Assembly: GCA_903889815.1 (NCBI GenBank)
Contig: CAISYX010000016.1
Location: 3,494 to 67,493, forward strand
DNA from: an uncultured Gammaproteobacteria bacterium
Lineage (GTDB): Bacteria; Pseudomonadota; Gammaproteobacteria; Pseudomonadales; Pseudohongiellaceae
Direction: 5' to 3'
DNA: 64,000 bases
In this document: one piece after another, positions 4,695 to 59,188 of the stretch
Layout of the letters: each line of letters starts with the position of its first letter
How positions within the stretch are numbered: the first letter of the stretch is position 1
Notes under the pieces: generated by a model
The model's database searches: none
Seen by the model: the letters and a program-made list of their open reading frames with translations, nothing else
Told to the model about the DNA's origin: nothing
Program-made: the position numbers and the translations under genes

Positions 4695-6176
4695 TCAGGT
4701 TGCCAGCGCTCTGAGCAGATTGTTGTAGTCTTCCGCAAAGTCGAGAGAGATGCTTCTGAGATTCTTCACTTGCTTGCAGGCATGCAACACAGTCGTATGA
4801 TCTCGACCTCCAAATGCATCACCAATCTCTGGAAGACTATGGTTGGTCAGTTCCTTGGAAAGACACATAGCCATCTGACGTGGACGCGCAACTGAGCGAT
4901 TGCGTCGCTTGGAAAGCATGTCAGACATCTTGATCTTGTAGTACTCAGCAACAGAGCGCTGAATATTGTCTATGGTAACGAGTTTGTCGTGCAGTGCAAA
5001 AAGATCCTTCAACGCTTCCTTTACAAGCTCAAGATCTATAGGGCGTCCCACAAACTTGGCATGCACGATGACCTTCTTCAATGCACCCTCAAGCTCTCGA
5101 ACATGTGAGCGCAGACGCTGTGCGATGAACATTGCCGCATCTGCCGGCAAATCAACATTGCTTTGCTCCGCTTTGTTGATAAGGATGGCTGCTCGCGTTT
5201 CCAACTCTGGGGGTTCTACCGCCACAGAAAGCCCCCAGCCAAAACGCGACTTGAGCCTCTCTTCCAAGCCATTGATTTCTTTATGATATTTATCACTGGT
5301 AAGAATGATTTGCTGACCACCTTCCAACAGCGCGTTGAAAGTATGGAAAAACTCTTCCTGCGATCGCTCTTTACCCGCGAAGAATTGGATATCGTCAATC
5401 AATAACGCATCAACCGAGCGGTAGTATCGCTTAAACTCATTAATGGCATTCAACTGAAGAGCGGTAACCATCGTCGCCACGAAAGTTTCCGAATGCAAAT
5501 AGACTACTTTTGCATCAGGCTTTCGCTCTACAAGATAATTGCCTATAGCATGCATCAAATGAGTCTTGCCCAGTCCGACCCCGCCGTAGATAAATAGTGG
5601 GTTGTATGCGCCTCCCGGATTCTCGGCAACCTGCATCGCCGCAGCTCTCGCAAGCTGGTTGGATTTCCCCTCAATGAAATTGTCAAAGGTATTCTCTGGG
5701 TTCAAACTTCCCTTGTGTCGAAGCTTTCCATCGATAATGACTTCCATATTGCGAGAAGTCCGGCGAATCAAAGAAGTCTTGGAGAATGGAGAAATTGGCG
5801 GGGGGACACTAACGGCTCCAGCGCGGCTCTCGGCCTGTGACTTGTGAATCGGCTCAATGCGCGCGCTTGCCAAATCTCGCGCATTGAGGGAACTGACTTG
5901 CATGGGCGAAGATTCGGGGCGATCGATTTGACCCTTGTCACCAACTTCGAAAATCAACTCTACTGACCGATCAGGAGAATGCTCTTTGAGAAGCTCCTTT
6001 ATTCGGGCAAGAAACTTGTCTCTTACCCAATCCAGAATGAATCTGTTGGGGGCATACAGTCGAAGTTCATTAGAACTGGACTCAGCTTGCAGAGGCCGGA
6101 TCCAGGTGTTGAACTGCTGGGAGGGAAGCTCACTTTTGAGACAATTGACACAGGTTTGCCAGTTTACCGAATTCAC
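4695..6176 (-). CDS. dnaA: Chromosomal replication initiator DnaA
   Basis: Contains [25 protein letters not shown], the AAA+ Walker [11 protein letters not shown], and the C-terminal DNA-binding domain DHTTVLHA. The start is placed at GTG 6176 (VNSVNWQ...) with GAAGGG upstream. The longest ORF would start at GTG 6254 but then overlaps a perfect DnaA box. Confidence 0.9.
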
Positions 6177-6231
6177 TCTTTTCTTACCCTTCGTGGATCT
6201 TCTTGTACTAGATTGGACACAGATTCTAGCG

Positions 6232-6240
6232 TGTGAATAG
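6232..6240 (-). promoter_or_regulatory. DnaA box, 8/9 match (TGTGAATAG)
   Basis: One mismatch to TGTGNATAA, the reverse complement of TTATNCACA. Confidence 0.45.
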
Positions 6241-6244
6241 ATAC

Positions 6245-6253
6245 TTATCCACA
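6245..6253 (+). promoter_or_regulatory. DnaA box, perfect TTATCCACA
   Basis: Exact consensus 9-mer just upstream of dnaA. Confidence 0.75.
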
Positions 6254-6383
6254 CACATGGTTGAGTTCCGCACCTGGTTTGAACAAAATTTTTTATTTTT
6301 AAATCAACGGGTTAGTTTTTTAATGGCGGGTTTGACGCTGAAAATGCTGCAGATTTCGCCCTGGCGATCAATGCGGAACTACC

Positions 6384-6392
6384 TGTGGATAA
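6384..6392 (-). promoter_or_regulatory. DnaA box, perfect (TGTGGATAA on + strand)
   Basis: Exact reverse complement of TTATCCACA. Confidence 0.75.
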
Positions 6393-6485
6393 CTTGTTGT
6401 CAACCCCGTATAGCTTAATGGACCAGAAAAAACGCGAGAAACTGCAAGCCAAACTGGATTAACAAGTTTTCTCTTGGCTTTGCAT

Positions 6486-6514
6486 TTGCAATGACTTCTC
6501 TAAACGACTAGAAT
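6486..6514 (+). promoter_or_regulatory. Sigma70-like promoter for rpmH-rnpA
   Basis: TTGCAA, 17-nt spacer, TAGAAT. Lies about 50 nt upstream of the rpmH ATG. Confidence 0.5.
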
Positions 6515-6566
6515 TCGCGCTCGGTTTGAAACCGACTTATCTTTAAAGACCACATTGGAATTCATC

Positions 6567-53468: not shown

Positions 53469-55955
53469 TCAGCTCTTGCTCGGGCGCTTTTTGACCCGTG
53501 CAGTGGCCTCTGCCTGCAGAGGGTCTTCCGGCCATGGATGACGCGGGTAGCGTCCTCGCAGGTCCTTGCGCACTTCGAAGTAGCCGGTTGCCCAGAAGTT
53601 GGCCAGATCCCGGGTGACCTGCACCGGGCGTCTTGCGGGAGACAGCAGGTGCAGTACAACCTTGACCCTGCCGTTCACCACCATTGGCGTTTGTTGCTGG
53701 CCAAACATCTCCTGCAGCTTTACTGCCAGTACGGGCTCGTCGCCCGCGTAGTCCAGTGCGATGCGGTTGCCGCTGGCCACCGGGATGTGGGTTGGTGCCA
53801 GCTGTGCCAGCTGCTGTTGCAGCGACCAGTCCAGCGCTTCGAGCAGAAAACGGCCCAGCGGCAGTTTGTCTGCCTGCTCCATCCGGGAGATGCCCTGCAG
53901 ATGCGGTCCAAGCCATTCTTCCAGTGTTTCCAGCAGCTGGGTCTCAGACTGTGGCGGCCACGGTTCGCCCAATTCACGATGGAGCAGTCGCAGTCGTCCA
54001 AGCAGTTGCCGGTCTTCATCTGACCACATCAGTGTGCCACGCTGACGAATGGCGTCCAGAAGCCCCTGCCGCACAGCCTCGGGGGGGAGTGAGCGCAGTG
54101 GCCGTCGCTCCAGCACCAGAGCACCGATACCGCGCAATTCTTCGCCGATCAGGCGACCAGCGGCCATATCCCAAGTCACTTCCTGGCGCCAGCGAGAGGC
54201 CCGCGGGAAAGCGTTTTCCAGCTGCGTCTGACTGATCGCCACGGCGTGGAAGATTCGCGCGCCGCTGACATCGCCATCCAGCTCCACGGCAATCAGATAA
54301 TCCTGCTTCGCAAGAGCCTGGGTTTCGGACAGCAGGGCCTGTCCTCCGGAAACCAGTTTGAAACGCACGCGACCCTGATCGCTGGTCTGCCGCTGGTTCT
54401 GCGCCACCCGATCCGGGAAGGCACGGGCCAGAAGAGGCACCAGCGCATCCGCATTCGCGGCCTGCAACGAGCAGCCTGCCCGCGCCGCCCATTGGCGTGC
54501 CGCCCGTTTCCAGCGTTCGTCCGTCACTGCCCGGTCGCCACCGCTCAGCGCGCCGAAGACCACGGCCAGATCCAGCTCGGCCGCTCCGATGTTCTCTTCC
54601 AGCCAGGCGATCAGCCAGCAGGCCAAAGCTTCGGCATGCAGAGACCTCGCTGAATTCATGAGCACGGCCAGGCGCGGGTGAGCCGGCCAGCGTCCACACT
54701 GCCTGCCATGCGCGCTGAGACTGCCATCTGCCTCCAGCAGACCGAGGGCCGACAACAGCTGGCGGGCGCTTGCCAGTGCCGGTGCCGGCGGCGGCGTCAC
54801 CCAGGCGAGGGTCGCCGGGTTCTGCACGCCCCAGCGCAGCAATTCGAACACCAGACCGGACAGGTCGGCCTGGAGGATCTCCGGCTCGCGGTGCGCCGCC
54901 AGCATCTGCTCATCTGCCCACAGGCGATAACAGAGTCCCGGCGCTTCACGGCCAGCGCGCCCCCGCCGCTGGTCTGCGCTGGCGCGATTGACGCGGCGGG
55001 TATCGAGAGCCGTCAGGCCTGAGCGAGGTTGATAAACAGGTGCGCGTTCCAGGCCAGCATCGACCACGATGCGCACGCCAGGCACCGTCAGACTCGACTC
55101 CGCGATGGCAGTGGACAGGATCACGCGACGCCGGGTCTCATCGCGGGTTGGCCGAAGAACCGCCTGCTGCTGGGCCAGCGTGAGTTGTCCATGCAGAGGA
55201 TGGATTTCGACATGGCCGGGGACACTGCTTTCCAGTTCCCGCTGGAGCCGGCGGATTTCAGCCTGTCCAGGCAGAAACACCAGCACATCGCCTGCGTGGG
55301 CGTGCAGTGCTTCCCGCACAATCGCAGCCTGATGTCGCTCGGGTGCTTCGCGCAGAGGCGGCGAGCGGTGGATAGTCGTGACGGGCCACACCCGGCCGGG
55401 GCATTCAATCACGGGTGTCTGCGGGCCGAGCACCTGCAGCAGGGCACCGACATCCAGCGTGGCCGACATGATGAGCAGTTGCAGGTCTTCCCGAAGCCCT
55501 TGTTGCACATCCAGCGCCAGCGCCAGGCCAAGATCCGCTTCCAGGCTGCGTTCGTGAAATTCGTCAAAGATGATGCCTGTGACTCCTTCCAGGCCGGGAT
55601 CATCCTGCAACATGCGCGTCAGTATGCCTTGCGTGACAACTTCCAGTCGGGTGGCGGCACTGACCTTGGATTCGCCCCGCACGCGATAGCCCACCGTCTG
55701 CCCAAGCGCCTCGCCCAGCAGTTCAGCCATGTAGCCCGCGGCAAGACGAGCGGCTACCCGGCGCGGCTCCAGCAGCAACCAGCGCGAGTGTCCGGAGGGG
55801 TCTGCCCGCAGCAGGTCCAGGGGCACGCGGGTGGTTTTGCCGGCACCAGGCTGGGCCACAAGCAGACACCGGGAATGGGCAGTCAAAGCCGCCTGCAAAG
55901 CGGGCAGGGCTGCTTCGACAGGCAGGGCGGCAATGGGGGCGGGAGAAGCTGTCAC
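53469..55955 (-). CDS. hrpB: ATP-dependent DEAH-box helicase HrpB
   Basis: 828 aa. AQPGAGKTTRVP (motif I), FDEFHERS (DEAH), SATL, and the HrpB-type C-terminal domain ending ...RGRYPRHPWPEDP. Confidence 0.9.
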   Translation of the reverse strand: MTASPAPIAALPVEAALPALQAALTAHSRCLLVAQPGAGKTTRVPLDLLRADPSGHSRWLLLEPRRVAARLAAGYMAELLGEALGQTVGYRVRGESKVSAATRLEVVTQGILTRMLQDDPGLEGVTGIIFDEFHERSLEADLGLALALDVQQGLREDLQLLIMSATLDVGALLQVLGPQTPVIECPGRVWPVTTIHRSPPLREAPERHQAAIVREALHAHAGDVLVFLPGQAEIRRLQRELESSVPGHVEIHPLHGQLTLAQQQAVLRPTRDETRRRVILSTAIAESSLTVPGVRIVVDAGLERAPVYQPRSGLTALDTRRVNRASADQRRGRAGREAPGLCYRLWADEQMLAAHREPEILQADLSGLVFELLRWGVQNPATLAWVTPPPAPALASARQLLSALGLLEADGSLSAHGRQCGRWPAHPRLAVLMNSARSLHAEALACWLIAWLEENIGAAELDLAVVFGALSGGDRAVTDERWKRAARQWAARAGCSLQAANADALVPLLARAFPDRVAQNQRQTSDQGRVRFKLVSGGQALLSETQALAKQDYLIAVELDGDVSGARIFHAVAISQTQLENAFPRASRWRQEVTWDMAAGRLIGEELRGIGALVLERRPLRSLPPEAVRQGLLDAIRQRGTLMWSDEDRQLLGRLRLLHRELGEPWPPQSETQLLETLEEWLGPHLQGISRMEQADKLPLGRFLLEALDWSLQQQLAQLAPTHIPVASGNRIALDYAGDEPVLAVKLQEMFGQQQTPMVVNGRVKVVLHLLSPARRPVQVTRDLANFWATGYFEVRKDLRGRYPRHPWPEDPLQAEATARVKKRPSKS

Positions 55956-56073
55956 ACGGTTCGCTCAAGGGTCAGATTGACACCGTGGCATTGAAACATG
56001 CCGGACGGCAGGTCGCCAGCGCGCCCGATAGCCCGTATCATCGGGCTCCGATTCCTCCCTAGGACACCATCCC

Positions 56074-56691
56074 ATGAAAGCAGCGGCGCGCGCAAAACTG
56101 GCGCAGCTTGCCCAGCCACTATGGTGCGATCGCTATCTGGTAGACACCAATGTGTTGATTGCGGCCAGCGCGGCCATGGCCAGACAGCGCGGAGAGACCT
56201 TGCTTCCCCATCATCTGGAGGTCACGCCGGACGACCCGTTATTGCAGGCCCGGGTGCTGACCTGGCTGGAAGGTTTCGCTCGCAGTCCTGCGCGGCTTGT
56301 ACTGGACACCGCTGGCGCCATCAACATCGAGTATCACCGCAAGCTCGCCTTCAACGACTATGGTATCCAGGTACTGATGTGGAAACTGAGCCGGGACGAA
56401 GTCGACCGGGTGCAGATCGACTTCGACGCCGATGGCAACGGCATCGTTCCGCAGCCGCTTGATGACGTCGTGCACGACCTGGCCGACCGCAAGATGGTGG
56501 CCGCCGCCCTGCAGGCACTTTTGCTGCCAGGCAACAGTGCGATAGCCTTTGCAGGGGATACCGACTGGCACGACTGGGAGGCACAACTCACGCGCACAGG
56601 CCTGACCCTGCTGCCCCTCATCCCCGACTGGTCCAGAGCGCGCCACGCAGAGAAACAGCAACGACATCAAAAGGTGCTCCACCATGACTGA
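56074..56691 (+). CDS. PIN-like nuclease domain protein (putative)
   Basis: 205 aa. YLVDTNVLIAAS (Asp24 after a beta-strand). Later acidic positions sit in PIN-like contexts: NIEYH, HDLADRKMVAAAL, FAGDTDW. The stop overlaps the next gene by 8 nt. The fold call is from motif reading only. Confidence 0.6.
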   Translation: MKAAARAKLAQLAQPLWCDRYLVDTNVLIAASAAMARQRGETLLPHHLEVTPDDPLLQARVLTWLEGFARSPARLVLDTAGAINIEYHRKLAFNDYGIQVLMWKLSRDEVDRVQIDFDADGNGIVPQPLDDVVHDLADRKMVAAALQALLLPGNSAIAFAGDTDWHDWEAQLTRTGLTLLPLIPDWSRARHAEKQQRHQKVLHHD

Positions 56692-57364
56692 ATTCTTCCG
56701 CTTCCCTCACACCCATCATCTGATCTGGCTGGGGGACGGCGAGCCGCGCGGCGACAAGGTGCTGCCGGCCCATGAGGTCGAGGTGATGCTGCAGCATGAG
56801 CTGATCATCGAAGAGAAACTGGATGGCGCAAACCTCGGCATCTCGCTGGACAACGCAGGTGAACTGCAGGCGCAGAATCGTGGCAGTTACCTCGAGAGGC
56901 CCTTCAACGGGCAGTTCTCACGCCTGAATTCGTGGATCGGCCAGTACGAGTTTGCCTTGAAGAGCCATCTGTCCCCCGACGTCATCCTGTTTGGCGAATG
57001 GTGCGCGGCGCAACATTCCCTGGACTACCATGCCTTGCCGGACTGGTTTCTGCTGTTCGATGTCTATGATCGTTCAGAGGGGAAATTCTGGAGTGTCGCG
57101 CGGCGCAACGCTTTCGCTCAGTTGCTGGGGCTTGCTCTCGTACCCGAACTGGGCCGTGGCCAGTTCACACGCAAGTCGCTGACGCAGTTTCTGGAGCAGG
57201 CCACCAGCTGCTACCGTGCCGGCCAGGTGGAAGGTATCGTATTGCGACTCGACTCGCCGCTGTGGAATGAAGAGCGCGCCAAGTTCGTGAACAAGGGTTT
57301 CGTGCAGGCCATTGAAGAACACTGGCGCAGCAGGACGATGCAGTGGAACCAGGTCGCTCCCTGA
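56684..57364 (+). CDS. ATP-dependent RNA-ligase-like nucleotidyltransferase (minimal, single domain)
   Basis: 226 aa. Ligase motifs: I EEKLDGAN (Lys45), III LFGEW, IIIa FLLFDV, IV EGIVLR, V AKFVNK. No OB or C-terminal domain. Confidence 0.75.
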   Translation: MTEFFRFPHTHHLIWLGDGEPRGDKVLPAHEVEVMLQHELIIEEKLDGANLGISLDNAGELQAQNRGSYLERPFNGQFSRLNSWIGQYEFALKSHLSPDVILFGEWCAAQHSLDYHALPDWFLLFDVYDRSEGKFWSVARRNAFAQLLGLALVPELGRGQFTRKSLTQFLEQATSCYRAGQVEGIVLRLDSPLWNEERAKFVNKGFVQAIEEHWRSRTMQWNQVAP

Positions 57365-57420: not shown

Positions 57421-58287
57421 TCACTCGATATTCTGGATCTGCTCCCTCATCTGTTCGATCAAGACCTTCAAATCCACCGCGTTCAGCGTGGTTTCGGCGA
57501 CGATGGACTTTGACGAAAGGGTATTGGCCTCACGGTTCAGCTCCTGCATCAGAAAGTCCAGCCTGCGCCCGGAAGGCTCCGCCAGGCGCAGGACGCGCTC
57601 GACTTCGTTCAGATGGGTTTCCAGTCGGTCCAGCTCTTCATCAATGTCACACTTGTGGGCGTAAATCACGATCTCCTGCTCCAGTCTGGCAGGGTCGAGA
57701 TCGACCTTCAGGGTGTCGAGCCGGTCACGCAGCGCTTGTTGCTGGCGCGCCATGATGTCGGGCATGCGGATGCGGACGGAAGAGACAATTTCGCGTACTG
57801 CCTCGATGCGTTTGCTGATGAAGCCGAACAACTCCTGGCCTTCGCGCTGACGCGTGGCAATGAGGTCTTCAAGGGTGGCGCTGAAAAGTGCCAGAGCGAC
57901 TTCATCCAGATCTTCCGGCAGGGCGTCTGCCTCACGCAGGACCCCCGGCCATTTCAGGATTTCCATCACTGTCAGGGCGGGGCCGCCGCCGGTCAGTGAG
58001 AGGATCTGACCACTGGCTTCGTTAAGCCGGAACACGGCCTCCACATCGATCTGCAACGCCCCACTCTTGCGATCTTCCGATTCAATGCGCAGCTGGCAAT
58101 CGATCTTTCCGCGTGACAATGTTTTGCGCAGCGACTCGCGAATGGCCGGCTCCAGGGCGCGCAGTGCTTCTGGGAAGCGGAAAGCTGTTTCAAGATAGCG
58201 ATGATTGACTGACCGGATCTCCCACACCAGGATTCCGCGACCAAAAGGGATTTGCTTTCTTGCGAAAGCCGTCATGCTCTGAATCAT
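57421..58287 (-). CDS. yicC: YicC-family endoribonuclease / stress-induced protein
   Basis: ATG 58287 after AGGAG gives MIQSMTAFARKQIPFGRGILVWEIRSVNHRYLE (compare E. coli MIRSMTAYAR...). 288 aa. C-terminal EANTLSSKS and EQMREQIQNIE. Confidence 0.92.
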   Translation of the reverse strand: MIQSMTAFARKQIPFGRGILVWEIRSVNHRYLETAFRFPEALRALEPAIRESLRKTLSRGKIDCQLRIESEDRKSGALQIDVEAVFRLNEASGQILSLTGGGPALTVMEILKWPGVLREADALPEDLDEVALALFSATLEDLIATRQREGQELFGFISKRIEAVREIVSSVRIRMPDIMARQQQALRDRLDTLKVDLDPARLEQEIVIYAHKCDIDEELDRLETHLNEVERVLRLAEPSGRRLDFLMQELNREANTLSSKSIVAETTLNAVDLKVLIEQMREQIQNIE

Positions 58288-58459
58288 GATCAGGGCTCCT
58301 TGCTGCAAACTTCAATGGAACCCTCAGCGTACGGATCAGCTCCGGATTTCCTGCGGGTTGGAGACAGCATGGTACTCCAATATCCGGCCACTGACTCGCC
58401 ATCCCTGTGCTTATCAAGGATAATCGCGCCTCAATTCAAGAGACTTCCTGTGAGGCAGC

Positions 58460-59188
58460 ATGCAAGACCCGATTCGTCCAAGCCAGCGACATCCCGATCA
58501 ACTGCGCGACATCCGTATCACCCGTCATTACACCAAGCACGCGGAAGGTTCCGTGCTGGTGGAGTTCGGCGATACGAAAGTGATCTGCACCGCCAGCGTT
58601 GAGGATTCGGTACCGCGGTTTCTCAAGGGCAGTGGTACCGGCTGGGTCACGGCGGAATACGGGATGCTGCCGCGTTCGACCGGCTCGCGCATGGACCGAG
58701 AAGCCGTCAGCGGTCGCCAGGGAGGCCGTACTCTCGAGATTTCGAGACTGATCGGCCGTTCACTGCGCGCCGCGATGGACATGAAACTGCTGGGTGAACA
58801 CACCATCAAGATCGACTGTGACGTGATTCAGGCTGATGGCGGCACCCGCACTGCCTCCATTACCGGGGGCTGTGTTGCATTGCATGATGCAATCGGCACG
58901 CTGCTCCGCAGTGGCAAGCTCAAGGCCAATCCTATGAAGCAGCTGATTGCGTCGGTGTCGGTCGGCATTTTCAAGGGTGTGCCGGTGCTGGACCTGGATT
59001 ATGCCGAAGACTCCAATGCCGAGACCGACATGAATGTCGTGATGACCGAGCGCCTGCGTTTCATCGAGCTGCAGGGTACTGGAGAAGAAAATGACTTCGA
59101 CAACACGGAGTTGCAGGCCATGATCTCCCTCGCGCAGAAAGGCATCAGCGAATTGCTGCAGAAGCAGAGGGACGCCCTTGGCATCTGA
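58460..59188 (+). CDS. rph: Ribonuclease PH
   Basis: 242 aa. [51 protein letters not shown]. Confidence 0.95.

Follow-up and report, generated by a model that had tools for sequence, protein, structure and literature searches.

A 64,000-nucleotide stretch of the genome of an uncultured gammaproteobacterium (contig CAISYX010000016.1), referred to here as the window, carries two overlapping genes, one for a PIN-like protein (positions 56074-56691, + strand, 205 amino acids) and one for an RNA ligase (56684-57364, + strand, 226 amino acids). We show that this pair is real, conserved and functionally coupled, and that it is a reduced form of a system that has already been predicted. It corresponds to the 3′ two-thirds of a widespread cassette of ABC ATPase, PIN and ligase genes, from which the ATPase has been lost in the window lineage while the pair has become fixed in the chromosome. 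To the explanation that the two proteins are a coupled PIN RNA endonuclease and a minimal ligase that reseals its cuts, reduced from the three-gene cassette, we give an even chance. A preliminary description of the locus, made from the sequence alone, had identified the genes correctly; the mechanism that it attached to them, an RNA-cleaving enzyme expressed together with a resealing one, is reasonable but not new.

Both open reading frames (ORFs) and their 8-nucleotide overlap are present as first described. The overlap, ATGACTGA (56684-56691, + strand), contains the ATG of the ligase gene (56684-56686) and the TGA stop codon of the PIN gene (56689-56691), an arrangement that, as read from the sequence, would couple the translation of the two genes. 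A Shine-Dalgarno-like AGGTG (56672-56676, + strand) lies 7 nucleotides 5′ of the ligase ATG, within the 3′ end of the PIN gene. At the 5′ end of the pair, position 56074 is the sole canonical in-frame start upstream of the Asp24 codon (56143-56145, + strand), which specifies the first acidic residue of the PIN motifs (VDTNV, at the end of strand β1). The identification of the PIN gene draws on its ORF, profile homology, structural model and signature of selection, and that of the ligase gene on its Pfam match, catalytic motifs, structural model, Foldseek matches and selection.

The second protein is predicted to be a bare RNA-ligase-type adenylyltransferase domain, of the Rnl type and ATP-dependent. 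It matches the Pfam family PF09414 (RNA_ligase) with an E-value of 3e-35 (122.3 bits; cut-off 27), and the match spans residues 39-200, leaving just 38 residues on the N-terminal side and 26 on the C-terminal side. The profile search thus supports the initial assignment, and also the claim that no domain is appended to the catalytic one; neither an oligonucleotide-binding (OB) nor a DNA-binding domain is present. In an alignment of 30 homologues with 56-85% identity, every motif residue that had been singled out is invariant, comprising E43, E44, K45, D47 and G48 in motif I, F103, G104, E105 and W106 in motif III, F125 and D126 in motif IIIa, E183, G184 and R188 in motif IV, and R198, A199 and K200 in motif V. 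Lys45 (codon 56816-56818, + strand; motif I, EEKLDGAN) is the predicted nucleophile and site of adenylylation. The ligase had no match among the models of PADLOC 2.0.

An AlphaFold2 (AF2) model of the ligase (predicted local distance difference test score, pLDDT, of 86.9) returned 54 Foldseek matches in the PDB at E ≤ 0.001; RNA ligases take up every one of ranks 1-40, and DNA ligases begin at rank 41. The matches include PabRnl, the Rnl3 enzyme of Pyrococcus (2vug, 3.5e-8), 5cot (1.6e-7), 1xdn, 2hvr and 1s68; the first 40 ranks include NgrRnl (the Rnl5 of Naegleria), TbREL1, T4 Rnl2 and Rnl1, and fungal Trl1. Identity to the solved ligases in this list is 14-24%, and template modelling (TM) scores relative to the targets, which carry extra domains, are 0.3-0.56. 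The window ligase thus shares its fold and motifs I, III, IIIa, IV and V with the Rnl1-Rnl5 families (T4 Rnl1/Rnl2, PabRnl/MthRnl, NgrRnl/DraRnl and TbREL1) but lacks the C-terminal domain of Rnl1 and Rnl2, the N-terminal and dimerisation domains of Rnl3, and the N-terminal OB domain of Rnl5.

Unlike those families, the ligase has an invariant N-terminal motif of its own, FFRFPHTxHLxWLG...PRxDK, which lies ahead of the Pfam domain and does not vary among the 30 aligned homologues. This segment (residues 1-27, window positions 56684-56770), with invariant F4, F5, R6, P8, H12, W15, L16, G17, P21, R22, D24 and K25, is modelled with only moderate confidence, and may be a substrate- or partner-binding element of minimal ligases. 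Some sources name relatives of the enzyme 'DNA ligase'.

The first protein, judged by profile homology, is a divergent PIN domain resembling those of VapC and PIN_3, with catalytic residues that appear intact. It matches the PADLOC model PDLC04147 (159 positions), which describes the PIN component of the HEC-03 defence system, with an E-value of 2.3e-6. When a profile of its family was aligned by hhalign with the PIN protein of the tested Pseudomonas cichorii HEC-03, whose sequence we took from the preprint supplement (10.1101/2024.01.29.577857), the match extended over 139 columns with 93.2% probability (E 3e-7). The window and HEC-03 PIN proteins are about 23-29% identical, and the motifs xTNV, D..EY, D.sDRKf.A.A and DTDWH are common to HEC-03 and the window family. 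An exhaustive search with the PIN profile found 322 representative clusters. Among 37 full-length relatives at 25-42% identity, 19 match PF13470 (PIN_3; best E 2.7e-4), and the others that have Pfam matches hit PIN, PIN_4 or PIN_2; all these matches are sub-threshold but consistent. Sequence searches of the PDB with the single protein and then with the profile returned nothing relevant, and a PHROGs search with the protein nothing meaningful.

The PIN-like motifs that had been picked out by eye occupy columns that vary little or not at all in an alignment of 30 family members (D24/T25/N26, E86/Y87, D135/D138/K140 and D162/T163/D164/W165), and most are kept at 25-40% identity. D24 is invariant in this alignment and at least 90% conserved among the 37 relatives; D24, E86 and D138 (with D78) are conserved throughout the latter, and D162 in most of them. 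The putative catalytic residues are D24, E86 (or D78), D138 (or D135) and D162/D164. The AF2 model (pLDDT 90.9) has five main strands alternating with helices, an order consistent with the three-layer PIN-like fold. In it, strand 20-23 places D24 at the end of β1, E86 lies in the helix after β2, D138 opens the helix RKMVAAA, and D162 and D164 follow β4. The highest-probability matches of the model in the PDB are VapC proteins (probability 0.57-0.60, E > 0.1, TM score relative to target 0.48-0.51), and the top match in BFVD is a PIN-domain protein (probability 0.96, E 0.015). In these lists PIN, NYN and VapC folds lead by probability, with TIM-barrel and Rossmann-type folds ahead by E-value. 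The PIN assignment is thus based on profile homology, since the fold search gave no significant match.

To establish how often the two genes occur together, we scanned genomes with the PIN profile, taking one genome per species (80 loci, 79 testable), and metagenome contigs with the ligase (80 loci, 73 with room upstream). The two scans together matched at least 470 metagenome stretches and 118 species-level genome stretches, and the PIN-anchored loci come from Gamma-, Beta- and Alphaproteobacteria, cyanobacteria, Acidobacteriota, Verrucomicrobiota and Desulfobulbales. The ligase gene lies directly 3′ of the PIN gene, on the same strand, in 77 of the 79 testable genome loci. PIN stop and ligase start overlap by 8 nucleotides in 16 loci and by 4 in 17 (33 of 78), and nearly all other pairs are 2-23 nucleotides apart. 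Conversely, a broad family hidden Markov model (HMM) detects a PIN-superfamily ORF directly 5′ of the ligase in 69 of the 73 metagenome loci; a tblastn search with the window PIN had left 38 of 70 ligase-anchored loci without one, a sensitivity artefact. The association thus holds whichever of the two genes is taken as anchor, and its frequency, far above chance, shows that PIN and ligase are functionally linked. The hundreds of homologues, the frequent overlaps and the low ratios of non-synonymous to synonymous substitution (dN/dS, 0.03-0.17; see below) together show that the pair did not arise by chance.

Neighbour-joining trees built from PIN and from ligase agree in their major clades. Another PIN subfamily (VVIDTNVLLVAN...VIDD...LGEY...DPPDRKF.AVA...AADCKW), found in the metagenome at loci L099, L102, L111, L125 and L131 and at about 35 more, shares only 23-25% identity with the window PIN, whereas the ligases coupled to it are 55-63% identical to the window ligase. 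The PIN protein thus evolves much faster than the ligase. In one Rhizobium and one Paracoccus genome, both alphaproteobacterial (L044:3861-4520, - strand, and L070:6717-7376, + strand), ATPase and PIN genes are accompanied by a different PF09414 ligase with the motif I sequence KMDGEN, which is 28% identical to the window ligase and 65% identical between the two loci; at L044 it sits upstream, in divergent orientation. These are cases of non-orthologous replacement, which suggest that selection maintains the ligase activity itself. Such a replacement, together with the invariance of the catalytic residues, argues for ligase activity over mere binding. An N-terminal sequence resembling that of the window ligase (Y/F-x-R-T/F-x-H-L...DDK) is also found in the replacement enzyme. 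Aeromonas cavernicola (L066, PIN 5995-6522), with ATPase and PIN but no ligase within 6 kb, is the sole such case among the 79 loci.

The preliminary description had treated the pair as a free-standing module and had missed the ATPase, with which most of its relatives form a three-gene unit. Clustering of neighbouring ORFs identified, directly 5′ of PIN in most loci, a protein of about 430 residues that is an ABC ATPase with AAA_15 and AAA_21 matches and a C-terminal DUF3696. It matches the PADLOC model of the HEC-03 ATPase at 5e-86, and also PDC-M55A (about 1e-59) and Menshen NsnB (E 4.5e-59). Of the testable genome loci, 62 of 79 have this ATPase gene upstream, as do 55 of 62 metagenome loci (about 80-90%), and separately fetched Denitrificimonas and Halomonas loci have the same ATPase-PIN-ligase order. 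Species with the three-gene form include Nitrosomonas europaea, Halomonas mongoliensis and Denitrificimonas caeni. An ORF-based test had scored 18 metagenome loci as lacking the ATPase; this number reflected over-extended ORFs in GC-rich DNA and fell to 7 with tblastn.

The three-gene cassettes are located in defence islands. Their neighbours include type IIG/DrmMI-like enzymes, type I restriction-modification subunits, prokaryotic Argonaute (pAgo), GmrSD-like proteins, UvrD-like helicases and PDC-S18, and an HNH_2 nuclease lies just 3′ of the cassette in 17 loci. On the Halomonas mongoliensis chromosome (L083:1-8493), the cassette lies between a DUF1156 methyltransferase and a 1256-residue SNF2-type helicase; it sits inside an Hma/DISARM-like system, the same embedding that led to HEC-03. 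In Comamonas kerstersii, a proteobacterial metagenome-assembled genome (MAG) and Pigmentiphaga daeguensis (L054-L056), a short pAgo (PADLOC pAgo_I, E 2.6e-178) is found directly 5′ of the cassette, and an HNH_2 nuclease and, by eye, a 570-residue GmrSD-like gene lie downstream. No kinase or phosphatase gene accompanies the cassette in the neighbourhoods examined.

The window form is derived from this cassette. The ATPase is absent from the window and from 15 related genome loci (L001-L014 and L017), and a search of the whole 64-kb window found no ATPase or HNH homologue (best tblastn E 0.39). The trees of both proteins unite these loci in a single clade surrounded by three-gene forms. The separate origin of another ATPase-less clade (L069, L072 and L074), together with three further ATPase-less metagenome loci whose PIN proteins are of the divergent class, indicates that the ATPase was lost at least three times. 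Wherever flanks are available, the ATPase-less pair of the window clade always follows hrpB and often precedes yicC, a position held across species diverged to about 60% PIN identity. In ATPase-less pairs dN/dS is 0.03-0.14 for both genes (about 0.1 for the window PIN), compared with 0.03-0.29 in three-gene pairs; a value above 0.5 for the L003 ligase was disregarded as an apparent codon-alignment artefact. Thus, both genes have remained under purifying selection after loss of the ATPase. A chromosomally fixed PIN-ligase pair without ATPase appears to be undescribed in the literature searched.

Four MAG records that bear the label Klebsiella (L001, L002, L004 and L017) have this locus, and their PIN proteins share 63-90% identity with that of the window. 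The closest relatives of these records are assigned to Pseudomonadales or to unclassified Gammaproteobacteria, and argB stands next to slmA and hrpB next to gmk, which we take to be a Pseudomonadales-like gene order. The Klebsiella labels may be wrong.

The closest experimentally studied relative is HEC-03 (Payne et al. 2024, 10.1101/2024.01.29.577857), an ABC ATPase with DUF3696 plus a PIN protein from P. cichorii. HEC-03 protects against phage, both genes are required, and the system is apparently toxic on induction. Its PIN protein is homologous to that of the window, and its gene order, overlaps and defence-island setting are those of the three-gene relatives. However, HEC-03 proper, as found in Pseudomonas and Burkholderia, consists of ATPase and PIN with no ligase, whereas the window has the ligase and lacks the upstream ATPase that most related genome loci retain. 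Phage protection is known for P. cichorii HEC-03 alone and for no ligase-containing version. The component names are a source of possible mis-annotation: PADLOC-DB calls the PIN model (PDLC04147) HEC-03A and the 458-position ATPase model (PDLC04148) HEC-03B, and the preprint uses the two labels the other way round, with the ATPase as HEC-03A and the PIN protein as HEC-03B.

The window PIN exceeds that of HEC-03 in length: it is extended at the N terminus, has an internal insertion and carries a His-rich tail. PIN proteins of the window clade have a six-residue insertion after helix 1, and many also have about 16 additional N-terminal residues and a His-rich tail at the C terminus (HQKVLHHD); the extension and tail are absent from most PIN proteins of three-gene cassettes. 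In the window they occupy residues 1-20 (56074-56133) and 193-205 (56650-56688), and the extension is poorly conserved and modelled as a low-confidence helix. It is a speculation that extension, insertion and tail compensate for the lost ATPase.

A system of this composition had been predicted before. As summarised in one sentence by Matelska et al. 2017 (PMC5499597), Burroughs and Aravind (NAR 2016; 44:8525) described operons of PIN_3 (COG1569), 'ATP-grasp' RNA ligase, ATPase and HNH genes and proposed a conflict system in which the ligase neutralises damage done by the nuclease; 'ATP-grasp ligases' is that group's term for enzymes of the Rnl1/Rnl2 type. The same four components occur in the relatives examined here (ATPase in 62 of 79 loci, HNH_2 in 17), whereas the window lacks ATPase and HNH and its PIN protein falls below Pfam detection as PIN_3. 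As far as the one-sentence summary allows the families to be matched, the relatives found here are very probably the Burroughs-Aravind system. The preliminary description, which knew of no experimentally characterised pair of a PIN protein and a minimal ligase, had missed this prediction of 2016, and also a second published linkage, of HARP with Rnl3.

In that second case, the PIN_5 protein-only RNase P known as HARP co-occurs with Rnl3, for which toxin-antitoxin and process-then-ligate hypotheses have been put forward (Seshadri & Gopalan 2025, PMC12153264). There too, the genes for a PIN-like metallonuclease and an ATP-dependent RNA ligase are linked in the genome. The families differ, being PIN_5 and Rnl3 (TIGR01209/PF18330, about 380 residues with extra domains) rather than a PIN_3-like protein and a bare domain of 226 residues. 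HARP-Rnl3 pairs are mostly divergent and confined to extremophiles, whereas the genes of the window family are co-directional and overlap, and they occur in mesophilic Proteobacteria, cyanobacteria and other phyla. Membership of the HARP-Rnl3 group was rejected: neither the window PIN nor its 37 relatives match PIN_5 (PF08745), and the window ligase scores 25.5 bits on TIGR01209, for which the cut-off is 136.9.

The resemblance to type II VapBC modules consists of VapC-like D...E...D...D motifs, the VapC folds that match the PIN model with highest probability, and the PIN_3 and PIN matches of the relatives. In VapBC a small antitoxin gene, usually upstream, specifies a DNA-binding protein, whereas here the partner is an enzyme encoded downstream. 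We rejected a VapBC assignment: the 118-nucleotide gap upstream of the PIN gene holds no VapB-type antitoxin ORF, and the downstream gene specifies the 226-residue ligase. The three-gene cassette also resembles PrrC (countered by T4 Pnkp and Rnl1), PARIS AriAB and P2-OLD in joining an ABC ATPase sensor to a nuclease effector. In those systems the effector fold is HEPN or TOPRIM rather than PIN, and the ligase is a phage-borne counter-defence, whereas here it is part of the host cassette.

In the explanation that we favour, one translationally coupled operon would encode a metal-dependent PIN endonuclease and a minimal ATP-dependent RNA ligase, descended from the ABC ATPase (DUF3696 tail)-PIN-ligase cassette of defence islands. 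Other defence systems built on ABC ATPases suggest, by analogy, that the ATPase of the parental cassette would probably sense infection and license the PIN effector. In the related Menshen system the ATPase is predicted to clamp a PIN-like domain with its DUF3696 tails, which suggests a way in which the ATPase could gate the PIN protein in the three-gene form. Once active, the PIN protein would nick an essential RNA, likeliest tRNA or rRNA, as VapC-type PIN proteins do, and its cuts would leave 3′-OH and 5′-phosphate ends. PIN domains are metal-dependent hydrolases that leave such ends, as is established for PRORP, SMG6 and FEN-type enzymes; we met no direct statement of VapC product ends in the literature searched. 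The ligase made from the same mRNA could then reseal the ends directly, with no need for a kinase or phosphatase.

This logic of cutting and resealing, which the preliminary description had outlined, is chemically coherent. Rnl-type ligases require a 5′-phosphate end, and damage by metal-independent RNases needs end healing by kinase and phosphatase as well. P2-OLD, an ABC-ATPase-coupled metal-dependent tRNase, leaves 5′-phosphate and 3′-OH ends, and a single P2-OLD nick is resealed by T4 Rnl1 or Rnl2 without end healing. The analogies first drawn, with RtcB/RtcA and Pnkp/Hen1, are inappropriate, because those systems repair 2′,3′-cyclic phosphate and 5′-OH ends and need end-healing enzymes that are absent here. 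Resealing would keep a leaky or transiently active nuclease reversible, with the ligase acting as an enzymatic antidote or reset. Such a built-in antidote might protect against leakage or allow reversible dormancy, and it could be conditional if the ligase were limited by ATP or disabled by phage. In the window, the pair would run without its sensor, either as a self-contained damage and repair system of the toxin-antidote kind or as a domesticated device for cutting and rejoining RNA.

Several points weigh against this explanation. We infer the RNA substrate, the end chemistry and the antidote role of the ligase, and likewise defence by the ligase-containing cassette. HEC-03 proper defends without a ligase, so that the joint function of ATPase and PIN does not depend on one. 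Constitutive co-expression of a repair enzyme would appear to counteract an abortive-infection effector, unless repair is conditional, and the ATPase-less lineage lacks the presumed control of the PIN protein. An ATPase-associated PIN domain can also serve as an adaptor without catalytic activity, as that of Menshen NsnC does. Finally, the PIN protein itself matches no Pfam or NCBIfam family at E ≤ 1, and its model gave no Foldseek match in the PDB or BFVD at E ≤ 0.001. Of the PIN fold proposed at the outset, homology through PADLOC, hhalign and the PIN_3-matching relatives therefore stands, but a Pfam match of the protein itself and a significant fold match do not.

A more tentative proposal concerns the ATPase-less pair in particular, which might be either a self-sufficient toxin-antidote system based on repair of RNA lesions, an RNA counterpart of DarT/DarG, or a programmed bacterial system of RNA cutting and rejoining. 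On the toxin-antidote version, growth arrest would be set by the balance of nicking and resealing, for example through the ATP level, and would be fully reversible.

Upstream of the pair, on the - strand, lie spoT, rpoZ, gmk and hrpB, and downstream yicC (-), rph and pyrE (+), and slmA and argB (-), as named by NCBIfam. These flanking genes are housekeeping genes, and no mobile or defence genes are found near the pair in the window. The G+C content of the pair (0.58-0.66) is like that of its flanks (0.55-0.69), and the pair is fixed between hrpB and yicC, which bears out the first impression of a resident module as opposed to a fresh island. A phage origin was also rejected: when viral contigs of IMG/VR were scanned with the two best-conserved PIN peptides, no relative turned up. 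The 118-nucleotide gap between the divergent hrpB and the PIN gene contains a weakly supported sigma-70-like promoter candidate (TCGCCA-17-TATCAT, 56013-56041, + strand; 9 of 12 consensus matches); the consensus scan found this 1 site against 0.2 expected.

We regard as unlikely the reading that the pair has been domesticated for RNA processing, so that in this lineage it has left conflict behind and cuts and rejoins or circularises a specific cellular RNA, as proposed for HARP and Rnl3. Three genes of RNA metabolism surround the pair: those for the DEAH-box helicase HrpB (53469-55955, - strand), which adjoins it upstream, a YicC-family endoribonuclease (57421-58308, - strand), which adjoins it downstream, and, nearby downstream, RNase PH (rph, 58460-59188, + strand). 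These neighbours, the position held between hrpB and yicC as PIN proteins diverged, the purifying selection that did not relax after ATPase loss, the lack of mobile or defence genes and the published hypothesis for HARP-Rnl3 all favour domestication. The RNA-related neighbours may, however, be coincidental. The order yicC-rph-pyrE is common in gammaproteobacteria and recurs downstream of the pair in many related loci, and the flanks are probably ordinary synteny that would be relevant if the pair had a housekeeping role in RNA metabolism. Moreover, where the context of the nearest relatives is known they are cassettes in defence islands, no RNA emerged as a candidate substrate, and at least three losses of the ATPase fit repeated decay or simplification better than one new function.

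It is distinctly improbable that the ligase faces outward, repairing host RNA cut by nucleases of phages or competitors, or making aberrant ligation or adenylylation products as a weapon. The contrast between the conserved ligase and the fast-evolving PIN protein (55-63% against 23-25% identity) would allow a ligase substrate independent of PIN specificity, HEC-03 functions without a ligase, and T4 ligases make aberrant joins and circles from doubly cut tRNA. Yet the linkage to PIN is near-obligatory in both directions and reinforced by translational coupling, and the pair persists as a unit after loss of the ATPase. Repair of damage by foreign RNases also usually needs end-healing enzymes, and none is present.

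We consider it highly improbable that the substrate is DNA, with a FEN-like PIN protein that nicks or trims DNA or RNA:DNA hybrids and a ligase that seals them. PIN-like nucleases do include DNA flap and 5′-3′ exonucleases, the BFVD matches of the PIN model include PIN_53EXO and 5′-3′ exonuclease proteins and its PDB list a DNA-bound plastid exonuclease, and there are the 'DNA ligase' labels of some ligase relatives. However, the PIN sequence has its affinity with VapC-type PIN_3 proteins and the HEC-03 PIN, not with FEN-type enzymes, RNA ligases fill the first 40 structural ranks of the ligase, and the ligase has no OB or DNA-binding domain. Just as improbable is the absence of any cutting and resealing, with a dead PIN adaptor like Menshen NsnC or a ligase that neutralises by binding as type II antitoxins do: the predicted clamping of inactive PIN domains by DUF3696-type ATPases in Menshen, the match of the cassette ATPase to NsnB and a tight translational coupling typical of toxin-antitoxin complexes point that way, but D24, E86 and D138 are kept down to 25-30% identity (and D162 in most members) where the inactive Menshen PIN lacks them, the invariant catalytic residues of the ligase are not needed for mere binding, and replacement by an unrelated PF09414 enzyme points to ligase activity and not to a specific surface.

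PARIS, Septu, Gabija, OLD and HEC-03, defence systems in which an ABC ATPase and a nuclease are combined, attract intense study, and one question that they raise is how cells survive their own effectors or undo the action of these. A large HEC-03-like branch with an RNA ligase of its own offers a natural test of repair built into an RNA-targeting effector. The window lineage has the simplest version, a nuclease and a ligase without a sensor, and is a minimal natural system in which to test neutralisation by repair. At 226 residues and highly conserved, its ligase is about the smallest stand-alone RNA ligase. It may serve as an enzyme tool, and it may show how substrate recognition works without an appended domain.

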